Translations under genes and position numbers: made by a program | From: Candidatus Dadabacteria bacterium | Lineage (GTDB): Bacteria; Desulfobacterota_D; UBA1144; Nemesobacterales; Nemesobacteraceae | Assembly (NCBI GenBank): GCA_026705445.1 | Contig: JAPPAR010000011.1 | Location: 10,525 to 74,524 of the forward strand | Length of the DNA stretch: 64,000 nucleotides | Reading direction: 5' to 3' | Part shown: positions 27,577-33,603 of the stretch, one piece after another | Layout: every line of letters begins with the position of its first letter | How positions within the stretch are numbered: position 1 is the first letter of the stretch | Notes under the pieces: model-generated | Databases searched by the model: none | Told to the model about the DNA's origin: nothing | What the model saw: only the letters and a program-made list of their open reading frames with translations

Positions 27577-30500
27577 ATGGCTAAGCCGAAGCGACGTTAC
27601 ACACAGAAGACATTAAAAATTCTGTTTACCCTGAGCGGAAACCAGTGTGCGTATCCCGAATGCGCTAATAATATTATTGAACCAGCTACCGAGTATTCCC
27701 CTGAACTAGTAACTGGACAAATAAGCCATATCTATGCGATTAAAAAGAAGGGTCCGAGGGGAAAACCGGGATTAACGCAAAAGGAACTGAATTCCCCAGA
27801 AAATCTTATTCTGCTTTGTCCGAACCACCATGCGGTAGTGGACGGCCAGCATGAATCCTATCCCGCCGAAGAGCTTAAGCACTGGAAGCGTGAACACGAG
27901 GACAGGATGTGGAATCAGCGTTTTTCCGATCCTGATTTATTTTCCCGCATACGAATTCCTACGGAGCTTGTTGACGAGAAAATTGAAGAGGAATTGGGGA
28001 AGCTTCGAAAATCGCGGTTTTTTGCGGGCTTTGACAATGTAGGTTCCTCACTGGAACTTGCGAAAAGAATTGATAAGGGGAATCTCTCCCTGGGGAGCGC
28101 ATCCGTAAGGAGCAGGGCGCTTGCGTGGTGCGCAAGATTCCTGTCTCTTAGGGAAACATCAGAAGAGGCGGAAAGGTGCCTGGATCTGGCAAAAAGTCTT
28201 GATACCTGCGTGGAAACCACAATTGCGGAAGCTTTTCTCTCCTCGAATAAGGACGGAAAGAAAGGCGCTCTAGGGATTCTGGCCGACCTTGATCTGCCCA
28301 TGTCCCGTTCTGCCATGCTTATGATAGTAGCGAACCATGAAGGCGGGCGGGCAGCCGTTGACTGGCTGAGGACTGCCGGCATTGAAGCGACCAAACTGGA
28401 TTCCGACGGCAGATATTTTCTTCTGAGCTTGCTGCTTGAGCTTGCCGAATGGGAATCCGCCCGCAGGTGTGTCGATGGGTGGACCGACGAGAATATCGAC
28501 GAAGCTCCGGCGCTCTATTACATGATGGGGATGGCCTGCCTGCTGAGAACAGTACCTGAAGAATTCCGCACTTCGGTGTTCAGGCAACCGCCGTTTTATG
28601 CGAGGGATTTTTCGCTGGCTTCGGACGAAGTGTCAATCAGTGAGCGGCGGAAAGCCCGAAATTATTTCATTGAGGCGGGAAATGTTGCCTGGGATATGAA
28701 CTATTCTGAAGCGGCGAAAATATGTGAAGAGTACGCGCTTTGGCTTGAGCTTACAGACCCCGATAAATCGAATGAAGGAAAACGGCGGCTGGAGACCATG
28801 CTTCGTGACCCGAAACGCGCTCTTGGAGTTGTTCACCTTGCACTTGAATTCGGAGTTGATCTGGGTCGCCAGAAGGTTGAGCGGGAAATAGAGAAACAGA
28901 CCGCCCTGCGGGGCGAAGTCACTTTTGATGCCGCGAGAGCGCGGCTTGCTCTTATCTTGGCGGATAAGAACCCTGAGAATATCGTCAGCAAGATAGAGCG
29001 CTACGGGGATGAGCTTGAACGTTTATCAGGCAGCAGGTTTGTGCTGTCACTCAAAATCGAGGTGCTTTGCCGGGCCGGTCTGCATAAGGAGGCTAAGGAA
29101 TGTTTCGATACGCTCAAGCGGGAGGGACTTTCGAAAGCCGAATGTAAAAAAGTTCAGGAAATGATTTCCGCGGCGGAAAAAGACGATACGGTTGAGTTTG
29201 CGAAGAGGCAGTTCGAAGAGACGGGTTCCCTGAAGGACTTGAGAGCGCTAGTTCTCGACCTCGAGTCCGAGGGCAGGTGGGAAGACCTTTGCAGATACGG
29301 AGAAGATCTTTTCAAAGAGACCTCCTCTTTGCCGGATGCGCAGAGGCTCGTTAATGCCTTCAGCAGAACGAACAGGACTGGAAAGCTCGTCGAGTTTATA
29401 AAAGCGAACAAGAATCTGATTGACCTTGATCAGTCTGGAAACCTACGAAGGGCTTATTGCTGGGCATTGTATCGCGAAGGCGAACTTCTTGAATCCAGAT
29501 CCGTGTTAGAAACGCTGAACCATTATCAGGATGAAGAAAGCTACCGCGTATCGAGGATCAGTCTTTCGGTCTATTTGGGGGATTGGAACAAACTTCCCGC
29601 CATCATTGCCGATGAGTACACAAACAGGGACAAAAGAACCGCACGGGAATTAATGGAGGTAGCCGGGCTTGCCGTAAGGTTGAAGCTGCAGATTGCGAAA
29701 GAACTCGTAACCGCAGGTGCCGAGAAAGGGGAAGACGACATTGCCGTGCTGTCTACCGCCTACTTGCTGGCTTCGGAAGACGGCTGGGAGGATGACCCGA
29801 AAGCGATTTGGTGGCTCCGGAAAGCTGCTTCGCTCTCCGGTGACGATGGTCCGATCCGGTCGGTTTCGTTTAGAGATATGGTCAACCTGAATTCGGAGTG
29901 GAATCAGCGGAACCACGAAATCTGGAGACTTTATGTCTCTGGAGGAATTCCGATATTGCTTGTCGCTCACTATCTGAACAGGTCCGCAGTCGAACTGACG
30001 CTTTTTCGTGCTCTGGCCAACCTGTCGGAGATGGACCCGAGGCGAAGAGGGATAATTCCGGCGTACAGCGGCAGCAGGCCTCCGGCGCGCCTTAACACCG
30101 GTGAAGCAGTTGGATTTGACGCCACTGCGTTGCTCACCTTGGGTTTTCTGGGTCAGGATTTGCTTGAAAAAGCTTTAGACGCTTTCAAAACGGTTTATAT
30201 CCCCCATTCAACGCTTGCGTGGCTTTTTGAGGAAAGAGAGAAGGCTGGTTTTCATCAGCCAAGCCGGATAAGGGATGCGCACAAATTGCGTGATCTGCTT
30301 GCCACGCAAAAGATCGAGAAACTTACGCCCAGTGCCGTTCCTGAAAGCGACCTGTGCGATCAAATAGGCGACGGTCTGGCCGTCCTGATAGCCGAGGCGG
30401 AAAAGAAACCATTGCATGACGATAAAATCCAGTGCCTAGTTGTCATGTCATCTCCGGTTTACCGGGTTGCGTCCATGATGGAGGAAGAGGCCGACTTGAC

Positions 30501-33500: not shown

Positions 33501-33603
33501 CTATTTACAGTTGCTGTATCTTTGCCGGATAGTCCCTGAATTACGGGTTTCCTGCGATAATGCCTGGGCTGCCTTGAAGGCTTTACAACGCCCTGCCTGC
33601 TGA
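27577..33603 (+). CDS. giant protein (2008 aa) with an N-terminal HNH nuclease motif and a long alpha-helical-repeat body. No P-loop detected
   Basis: Residues ~20-100: C-x-Y-P-E-C ... HIY ... NLILLCPNHH is an HNH/His-Me finger. No GxxxxGK[ST] anywhere. Possible PIN-like segments around residues 1050-1200 (AVLYLDDLSV..., AVIVDDRCINQ..., TTLDVIDELV). AT-rich and divergent from the intron-split gene. Confidence 0.7.
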   Translation: MAKPKRRYTQKTLKILFTLSGNQCAYPECANNIIEPATEYSPELVTGQISHIYAIKKKGPRGKPGLTQKELNSPENLILLCPNHHAVVDGQHESYPAEELKHWKREHEDRMWNQRFSDPDLFSRIRIPTELVDEKIEEELGKLRKSRFFAGFDNVGSSLELAKRIDKGNLSLGSASVRSRALAWCARFLSLRETSEEAERCLDLAKSLDTCVETTIAEAFLSSNKDGKKGALGILADLDLPMSRSAMLMIVANHEGGRAAVDWLRTAGIEATKLDSDGRYFLLSLLLELAEWESARRCVDGWTDENIDEAPALYYMMGMACLLRTVPEEFRTSVFRQPPFYARDFSLASDEVSISERRKARNYFIEAGNVAWDMNYSEAAKICEEYALWLELTDPDKSNEGKRRLETMLRDPKRALGVVHLALEFGVDLGRQKVEREIEKQTALRGEVTFDAARARLALILADKNPENIVSKIERYGDELERLSGSRFVLSLKIEVLCRAGLHKEAKECFDTLKREGLSKAECKKVQEMISAAEKDDTVEFAKRQFEETGSLKDLRALVLDLESEGRWEDLCRYGEDLFKETSSLPDAQRLVNAFSRTNRTGKLVEFIKANKNLIDLDQSGNLRRAYCWALYREGELLESRSVLETLNHYQDEESYRVSRISLSVYLGDWNKLPAIIADEYTNRDKRTARELMEVAGLAVRLKLQIAKELVTAGAEKGEDDIAVLSTAYLLASEDGWEDDPKAIWWLRKAASLSGDDGPIRSVSFRDMVNLNSEWNQRNHEIWRLYVSGGIPILLVAHYLNRSAVELTLFRALANLSEMDPRRRGIIPAYSGSRPPARLNTGEAVGFDATALLTLGFLGQDLLEKALDAFKTVYIPHSTLAWLFEEREKAGFHQPSRIRDAHKLRDLLATQKIEKLTPSAVPESDLCDQIGDGLAVLIAEAEKKPLHDDKIQCLVVMSSPVYRVASMMEEEADLTGHEHVLCSCGSFIDKLREKGRITEKTRRKARDYMRIHEKDWPSQPEIMDGAVLYLDDLSVTHFLYLGVLEELQAAGFRLVVSPGTVSEADELISYENISDEVGSIIEIIRAVLSSRIKSGRVRLARHFITDETDDPLLRRYPIADMFSLVGDCAAVIVDDRCINQNASISNKGIQVPVFTTLDVIDELVSSDSITQEDRFEHRARLRRAGYFFVPVIQHELEHHLAASAVKEGKVVEVAELKAIRENILCIQMSGWLQFPKEHFWVDTFLTAFVLTLNDLWSAGKDLSNARAFSEWIVESVDMPGWFQNLADKNKDSMNPAEYEVRGIRMFMISTGVSPEVLEDYWAWVEDRILAGMEQQRPELHSRILEQYKESIPKLVEMELAEKPEIRNDPEALSGLADAALHLVPPMFREPLIQESGFCEKYGLKTYQAASFGTPKIRFQHSGLCAAARKILSGRSSAQVTDEDGRKWELKNVNGKGQLPELMLFHEDGMYPLSLGFTMLSPKRKRLRFFEEFASAFNLPEDARDMWRSVLEKRAIEEREIKAFEDDFINTPADMAQSIHGVLASGTIDVPFLVPSSEKYFERLVGRYDGSATVENYAAASAGNLFRGLSAWRPYEGFLLSLLLSSHSALTDEIQVERLDADALAHAFDFLEKHGDRLSQLGAVEVGLRVVQSRPEIEPVLVKLVKKIRDDDVNGESSGFKHLQALFCLVDGELSRTRLFSSKPPFYRRLAALSQAALINRQMANSRADIDSFCQSAFVIRGGESYVQSLVDMRLEPRWIPGLWTPAQIKATFLGRVMAAGVRYRQNIENSELYGLVLGTGPESLHSVGIPFYHYLPGPLEGNLELAASLPPGVGIAIEEQLNSDKLSPLSFGALVNSGRNFLIGPHQTELAVEALKRADYRIADLQDRSQLIAVLDGLAAVAATARSPNLADELRILVRKYRHDVQYPVLVVEDVQICLMAAASRTSPDEWMAFVSDWMTELAFGKMKSEDAGLLYLQLLYLCRIVPELRVSCDNAWAALKALQRPAC

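Follow-up and report, generated by a model that had tools for sequence, protein, structure and literature searches.

A giant fused HNH, double-PIN protein from a Candidatus Dadabacteria bacterium as a predicted member of the TPR-GreA/B-C-PIN conflict family

TPR-GreA/B-C-PIN (TGP) conflict systems were described by Kaur, Iyer, Burroughs & Aravind (eLife 2021, Fig. 2K; PMC8195603) as a family in which a constant body free of nucleoside triphosphatase (NTPase) domains stands behind about 13 alternative N-terminal effectors, HNH being named explicitly among them, and whose genes mostly occur alone. The supplement to that work lists HNH+TPR+GreAB-C+PIN proteins of 1234 amino acids (aa), e.g., PSL26440.1, and a search of its tables for double-PIN proteins yielded a single giant, MBI4846278.1, given as 'TM+SIR2+TPR+PIN+PIN+TM', with 2304 aa and without a GreAB-C call (PMC8195603). 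One 'TGP' protein, Agp of the Bab/Agp pair from E. coli ECOR25, senses phage T5 and triggers abortive infection, and its GreA/B-C point mutants lose T5 sensing/function (bioRxiv 10.1101/2024.11.07.622273). Here, we analyse a stretch of 64,000 nucleotides (nt) from a Candidatus Dadabacteria bacterium (assembly GCA_026705445.1, contig JAPPAR010000011.1, positions 10,525 to 74,524), referred to as the window, which carries a gene for a 2008-aa protein headed by an HNH nuclease motif.

By its domain architecture, this giant gene is a member of the TGP conflict family, in a giant fused subtype, and not a new category of system. Like a classical TGP, the protein has a variable N-terminal effector, helical repeats, a GreAB-C-type domain and a PIN of family PF20698, has no NTPase, and belongs to genes that are mostly stand-alone and lie in defence contexts. 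Classical TGPs, however, present the order TPR, GreAB-C, PIN in about 850-1300 aa, whereas the window protein is about 800 aa larger and its order is inverted, running from a TPR-like region through HTH, PIN1, PIN2, a helical linker and a permuted GreAB-C to a solenoid. Given these differences in domain order and size, it represents a distinct subtype rather than a classical TGP. The HTH, the second PIN, the helical linker and the 520-aa conserved C-terminal solenoid are all additions to the classical form, and relatives of the window protein are commonly split in two overlapping genes. Pfam already holds models of the subtype, namely HTH_upstream_double_PIN and Permuted_GreAB-C. We read the protein as a TGP-class anti-phage (conflict) protein, self-contained and NTPase-free, of a 'HTH, double PIN, permuted GreAB-C, solenoid' subtype, working by the mechanism proposed below, and give this reading a probability of roughly 60%. 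A first-pass annotation of the window, made from the letters without database searches, had proposed a nuclease-based defence or toxin protein, of which the defence role is likely. It had also held that the protein matches no described system; this is contradicted by the published TGP architecture, in which HNH is listed, by the Pfam models, and by the validation of Agp against phage T5. Neither of the grounds for refutation that it had named, a fusion artefact or housekeeping homologues, was found. It is the novelty that falls, and the defence reading stands.

The single uninterrupted 6-kb open reading frame (ORF) described in that annotation starts with ATG and runs for 2008 codons (Table 1). 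An independent metagenome contig (L004) encodes an identical 2008-aa protein, and more than 577 homologues, many of about 2000 aa, come from independent assemblies that include isolates such as Paenibacillus elgii. Because of this identical protein and the hundreds of homologues of similar length, the ORF is a real gene, neither a chance ORF nor a mis-assembled fusion. As was noted in the first pass, no ATPase is present: the 2008-aa protein contains no Walker A motif ([AG]xxxxGK[ST]), not even a GK[ST] tripeptide, and a Pfam scan of it returned no NTPase match. The gene has its own sigma-70-like promoter, both hexamers of which are identical in an 80%-identical relative (locus L012). The palindrome next to it, a possible operator whose function is inferred, is conserved along with the promoter in L012, and the sequence farther upstream is not. 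The claim of an AT-rich island reduces to a mild shift, the gene having a GC content of 0.50-0.52, whereas the housekeeping sequence on either side mostly reaches about 0.53-0.59.

The N-terminal HNH motif contains the residues quoted in the first pass: C24-AYPE-C29, H51-IY and L80-C81-PN-H84-H85. The Pfam model HNH_2 falls just under its cutoff in the whole protein, and the head alone passes it (25 vs 21 bits). PADLOC models of HNH effectors, comprising PDC-M68A and CBASS endonuclease/SAVED-HNH effectors, reach 1.6e-37 with matches confined to aa 5-117, and PDB sequence searches with the head return 9om4_A at 2.5e-20 and Cap5 7rwk_A at 1e-9. Among 115 HNH heads, C24, C29, H51, N76, C81 and D89 are invariant (115/115), with H85 found in 114 and H84 in 110; H51, N76 and H85, together with C24, C29, C81 and H84, align with Cap5 structures. 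Judged by these residues, the head retains an intact Cap5-type HNH active site and is a predicted DNase.

Cap5 (the HNH-SAVED protein of CBASS; PDB 7rwk, 7rwm, 8fm1, 9dif) and 9om4_A, labelled 'HNH endonuclease', share with the window protein a homologous N-terminal HNH with identical catalytic and Zn motifs (E 1e-9 to 2.5e-20). Cap5, however, carries SAVED and has a CD-NTase partner, whereas the window protein is without both, its PADLOC and PDB matches ending at about aa 117-145; no SAVED domain or cyclase was found in the giant protein or in the neighbours scanned. With no SAVED or cyclic-nucleotide partner, regulation of the head must come from the TGP body. The PADLOC candidate system PDC-M68 was considered and rejected, given that just profile positions 4-108 of the 253-aa PDC-M68A match (aa 7-111, the HNH part) and that the neighbours of the giant gene have no PADLOC matches. 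Heads of this type also occur elsewhere: on a Blastomonas plasmid (NZ_CP016461.1, 14417-14743), part of an 'ABC-three component system protein' is 59% identical to the head alone, and in Yersinia phage vB_YenM_31.17 (934-1272), a region annotated 'hypothetical protein | lysogenic conversion protein' is 35% identical to it. The head therefore looks like a cassette common to several defence systems.

The body behind the head, of about 1900 aa, is conserved from about aa 130 (~I136) onward. In its first region, a PPR match stays below threshold (E 0.02) and TPR_19 is precomputed in two homologues; hhalign pairs the region with designed PPR repeats at P 0.002, the comparison with designed TPR repeats not being significant. 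The first-pass description of the whole remainder as helical repeat holds in part, but residues ~840-1470 form, in the AlphaFold2 (AF2) model, an alpha/beta region of two PINs plus a small beta-rich domain. Similarly, the motifs it had assigned to two PIN-like segments are real, but VLYLD1031D, VIVD1134D1135 and TLD1158VID all lie in one domain (PIN2), and the second PIN (PIN1, ~840-1020) is found upstream of it. The PIN folds of the protein are related to those of the nonsense-mediated decay factors SMG6, SMG5 and Nmd4. In PIN1, D848, E886 and E940 are conserved and the end of strand 4 has no acidic residue; this PIN may be non-catalytic and is probably degenerate. PIN2 matches PIN-TPR-GreABC (PF20698), the TGP-specific PIN family, at 1.5e-12, above the curated cutoff, with its best stretch at aa 1029-1142. 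Its acidic residues are at least 95% conserved when D/E exchanges are counted, D1134 being present in 260/261 and D1135 in 259/261 sequences whose bodies are 31-91% identical, and PIN2 is predicted to be an active RNase. The small beta-rich domain matches Permuted_GreAB-C at 6.9e-7 (aa 1415-1463). Against a cutoff of 27 bits, it scores 29.2 within the complete protein and 35 when scanned as a separate segment, and this model is passed by 8/10 diverse homologues; the domain is a putative RNA-polymerase-binding module. Conservation along the entire protein peaks within the C-terminal solenoid, at aa ~1550-1760.

The subtype comprises at least 1357 clusters at 50% identity (E <= 1e-3), 627 of them at E <= 1e-30, in Bacillota, Thermodesulfobacteriota (cable bacteria included), Methylomirabilis, Gemmatimonadota and Alphaproteobacteria. 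Its distribution over phyla is patchy, several paralogues may occur per genome, and copies are found on plasmids and in islands; RefSeq names the proteins 'hypothetical' or 'HTH domain-containing'. On the constant body stand heads of the types HNH, TIR, SIR2 (SIR2_2), Metallophos and SMEK_N, several heads of unknown type, or none, the head-less fused forms having heads of 32-34 aa. HNH is the head in 62 of 87 full-length sequences, the query counted. Two paralogues about 310 kb apart on contig ERZ26050812:ctg28107 (759,999 bp; loci L009 and L010) differ in this respect, one (P0066) being TIR-headed and the other (P0036) HNH-headed. Two homologues, P0017 and P0060, have an extra C-terminal extension of about 170 aa past the solenoid, which coincides with a precomputed AlbA_2/Schlafen-type (PF04326) match; variable cassettes can therefore apparently be appended at the C-terminus too.

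The part made of GreAB-C and solenoid is present in only 33/150 of the best cluster representatives. In split loci, an A gene of about 1365-1530 aa (head-TPR-HTH-PIN-PIN) is followed by a B gene of about 640 aa (the GreAB-C-like domain, matching Permuted_GreAB-C, plus solenoid), the two overlapping by 4-11 nt; this form was seen in every split locus looked at, i.e., five loci representing four independent contexts. Read against these loci, the window gene is the in-frame fusion of A and B with its junction near aa 1366, most relatives being split and translationally coupled.

The surroundings of relatives were compared in 13 fetched loci (L014 included), among which L002 largely duplicates L001, L005 is the same as L003, and L004 is the window's own sequence. 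A type I restriction-modification (R-M) operon encloses one of the split copies, and in Paenibacillus elgii the gene is bracketed by AAA_15/21 ATPases, a SLFN-type helicase, MazG and Hachiman. Another copy is beside HMUDK-ThyA, RelA_SpoT, a reverse transcriptase (RT) and AAA_15/21, and another is beside a Gabija-like pair and TIR. The locus of the HNH-headed P0036 is a dense island with KAP NTPases, AAA_13, GmrSD and SIR2-HerA, and the copy on the Agrobacterium pAt plasmid is beside an integrase, VapBC, HsdR-N and SIR2. Relatives thus recur in defence islands, which is what the first pass had suggested searching for. No neighbour is common to distant homologues in the 13 loci except the split B half, and because no neighbour is conserved, the giant protein is taken to be an autonomous unit. 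This, together with its own promoter, agrees with the earlier description of a standalone gene.

The mechanism we propose is the following. In the uninfected cell, the body would hold the HNH head inactive. Upon infection, the body would detect a cue located at the transcription machinery or close to it. The GreAB-C-like domain would dock on RNA polymerase, a step that Kaur et al. proposed and that the GreA/B-C point mutants support in the case of Agp, and the HTH and the solenoid/TPR surfaces would bind nucleic acid or protein. PIN2 would cleave RNA as the body's own activity, which would explain the persistence of head-less forms. A conformational change or oligomerisation would then license the HNH head, leading to indiscriminate DNA cutting and abortive infection, in parallel to Cap5. 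The HNH of Cap5 is switched on by oligomerisation.

Known proteins resemble parts of this scheme. Agp is likewise a TGP-class infection sensor that controls an N-terminal death-signalling element and requires GreA/B-C integrity; however, it has 1094 aa in the classical order, and its N-terminal amyloid motif templates a separate membrane effector, Bab, whereas the window protein has its nuclease effector built in (in cis) and lacks a neighbour resembling Bab. Avs and NLR-like STAND proteins follow the same logic, with one large polypeptide that joins a swappable N-terminal nuclease, TIR or SIR2 to a helical-repeat sensor, yet they have a central P-loop NTPase, whereas the window protein has none and has PINs in its centre. 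In comparison with PIN RNases (VapC toxins; SMG6, SMG5, Nmd4), the window PINs form an embedded tandem pair, without a VapB-type antitoxin and with a partial active site in PIN1.

Several observations weigh against the proposed reading. The sole validated TGP, Agp, is of the classical order and signals through an amyloid motif rather than HNH, and the searchable literature yields no text description or experimental test of the giant subtype. The body of the giant protein has no PADLOC model, the TPR assignment is weak and was not reproduced independently, and comparisons of the permuted GreAB-C domain with genuine GreA reproduced no similarity. Some contexts are not plainly defensive, such as that of the Electrothrix copy, which has only insertion sequence (IS) elements and housekeeping genes around it. 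Strong conservation of the solenoid is also unusual for a sensor of fast-evolving phage proteins; it would be easier to reconcile with a protein that guards a conserved host machine than with one that acts as a receptor of variable phage proteins. A more specific reading, which we consider less likely than not, is the following: the giant proteins, fused or A/B split, could be a mechanistically distinct, NTPase-free 'type II TGP' guarding a conserved host complex, most plausibly RNA polymerase, with a resident PIN RNase and an HNH, TIR or SIR2 suicide head licensed by oligomerisation. Guarding a host complex, not a variable phage protein, would explain why the solenoid is the most conserved part across phyla. 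If true, such proteins would have a sensing logic of their own.

The RNase step is where the proposed mechanism meets its main rival. TIR, SIR2 and HNH effectors are activated by oligomerisation in other systems, and all three occur as heads here; the whole body, both PINs included, could then do nothing but sense, with the HNH head as sole effector licensed by oligomerisation, Avs/NLR-like or Agp-like and with no NTPase. The incomplete acidic set of PIN1 points in the same direction, as does the lack of detected effector-independent first-line activity in Agp, whose PIN mutant was unstable (bioRxiv 10.1101/2024.11.07.622273). However, the near-invariant PIN2 acidic residues in 261 divergent sequences argue for catalysis or at least metal binding, and the head-less fused forms imply that the body acts alone or partners with an unseen effector. 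We consider this pure sensor-plus-effector reading doubtful.

Two further explanations would remove the protein from immunity. Given the toxicity of over-expressed Bab/Agp (bioRxiv 10.1101/2024.11.07.622273) and the fact that the gene shares a block with a HicA-like/HicB pair and has a group II intron, IS elements and TnpB on its flanks, it might instead be an addiction or stabilisation toxin of a mobile island, held in check by a neighbour such as the HicB-like protein. This is improbable, as the HicAB linkage holds only in relatives of at least 80% identity and is lost at <= 53%, the family shows no conserved candidate antitoxin, its one conserved partner being the protein's own B half, and head swapping together with R-M, Gabija and Hachiman neighbourhoods is the signature of immune genes. 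Least probable of all, and very unlikely, is a housekeeping factor in transcription or in the quality control of RNA whose HNH is a vestigial zinc ribbon, to which the GreA/B-C-like domain, the kinship of the PINs with SMG6, SMG5 and Nmd4 and the highly conserved C-terminal solenoid would be suited. Against it stand the invariant HNH catalytic residues, the exchange of heads for TIR, SIR2 or phosphoesterase, the patchy distribution over phyla, paralogues within genomes, plasmid and island copies and a close relative whose head is truncated by an IS; a core gene would show none of these.

Few predicted immune sensors of bacteria have been proposed to monitor transcription in the host; TGP proteins are among them, and only one classical member has experimental support. 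On the anti-phage reading, the larger fused subtype is represented cleanly by the window gene, which is intact, has its promoter and carries a DNase head in cis; the group is widespread, usually two-gene, and retains its HNH and PIN2 active sites. The body's cue, the PIN as a first-line RNase, and the licensing of an effector by an NTPase-free scaffold become addressable questions, and the subtype has cultured carriers in Agrobacterium fabrum (pAt) and Paenibacillus elgii.

The features of the giant gene and of its surroundings are presented in Table 1. The first-pass annotation had placed the gene beside an Abi_2/HEPN gene, two hicAB pairs, TnpB and an intron-split gene; a HicA-like/HicB pair, a second HicA, TnpB and a group II intron are indeed there, but no Abi_2/HEPN gene is among the window ORFs scanned.

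Table 1. Features of the giant gene, its protein domains and its neighbourhood (window positions).
Feature	Position	Strand	Basis or remark
Intron RT/maturase ORFs	25793-26548 and 25332-25772	-	One frame broken in two
Group II intron, Rfam group-II-D1D4-6 RNA	26809-27025	-	115 bits; immediately upstream of the giant gene's promoter
Palindrome TAGTAT-N8-ATACTA	27500-27519	+	Just 5' of the -35 hexamer
Sigma-70-like promoter, TTGACA, 17 nt, AATAAT	27525-27553	+	11/12 matches; 24 nt before ATG
Giant fused TGP-type coding sequence	27577-33603	+	ATG start, 2008 aa + stop codon, uninterrupted ORF
HNH head, aa 1-125, Cap5-type (His-Me finger) DNase (predicted) with Zn-binding Cys set, swappable effector cassette	27577-27951	+	PADLOC, PDB matches, residue conservation
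Helical region, aa ~130-760, family annotation TPR, weakly TPR/PPR-like here	27964-29856	+	Weak PPR match, hhalign
HTH_upstream_double_PIN, three-helix HTH, aa 765-834	29869-30078	+	Pfam PF24407, 4.5e-22, 78.6 bits, above the curated cutoff; helices in AF2 model
PIN1, aa ~840-1020, PIN fold, incomplete acidic set	30094-30636	+	
PIN2, aa ~1027-1165, TGP-type PIN, complete acidic set (D1031, E1082, D1134, D1135, D1158; T1156)	30655-31071	+	
Helical linker domain, aa ~1166-1407, holds A/B split point ~aa 1366	31072-31797	+	AF2 secondary structure
Small beta-beta-alpha-beta4 domain, aa 1408-1471, Permuted_GreAB-C	31798-31989	+	Pfam PF24388
Alpha-solenoid, aa 1482-2008 (~520 aa)	32020-33600	+	No Pfam model
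HicA-like (84 aa) + HicB (274 aa) pair	33731-34813	+	HicB Pfam match; directly downstream of giant gene
547-aa ORF	34882-36525	+	Last gene of shared 8.8-kb block
Second HicA	37284-37517	+	
TnpB, OrfB_IS605 + Cas12f1-like TNB domain	37896-39062	+	No adjacent TnpA ORF in scanned set
STAND-like AAA_16 + TPR protein, 928 aa	40042-42828	-	PADLOC: no match
AAA_16/ATPase_2 protein, 403 aa	42789-44000	-	

Because its RT/maturase frame is split over two ORFs, the group II intron probably encodes a defective protein. The 84-aa ORF (33731-33985, +) is a divergent HicA without a Pfam match that shares 31% identity with the second HicA in the window (pairwise E 9e-5), and the 124-aa ORF at 36904-37278, just before that second HicA, has no HicB signature. 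The HicA-like/HicB pair also follows the giant gene in L003 and L012 and is missing beside relatives of <= 53% identity; because the linkage is confined to relatives of at least 80% identity, the pair is read as a hitch-hiker. The 547-aa ORF, which has no Pfam or PADLOC match even at E <= 5, is kept (546 aa) downstream of the gene in a Thermodesulfobacteriota metagenome-assembled genome (MAG) and is absent from L012.

In that MAG, positions 9997-18809 of L005, a locus of the chromosome (OZ244920.1), are 88% identical at the nucleotide level to window positions 27702-36519, both flanks being unrelated. The shared 8.8-kb block comprises the giant gene from codon 42, the HicA-like ORF, HicB and the 547-aa ORF, and its end is only a few bases away from the stop codon of the latter, an arrangement suggestive of a transferable cassette. 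The MAG copy has a truncated HNH head (L003 8670-10001 / L005), with tblastn matches beginning at query residue 44; no more than about 30 residues separate the called start of its protein (P0015) from the C-terminal end of the head, and directly upstream is a gene for a DDE_3 transposase. This looks like an IS-mediated loss of the effector. Housekeeping genes (GroEL, MutS, a LeuA-like gene) lie elsewhere in the window, as do two adjacent genes for STAND-like ATPases, the AAA_16 + TPR and AAA_16/ATPase_2 proteins, which may constitute another NLR-like defence/conflict module at the island edge.

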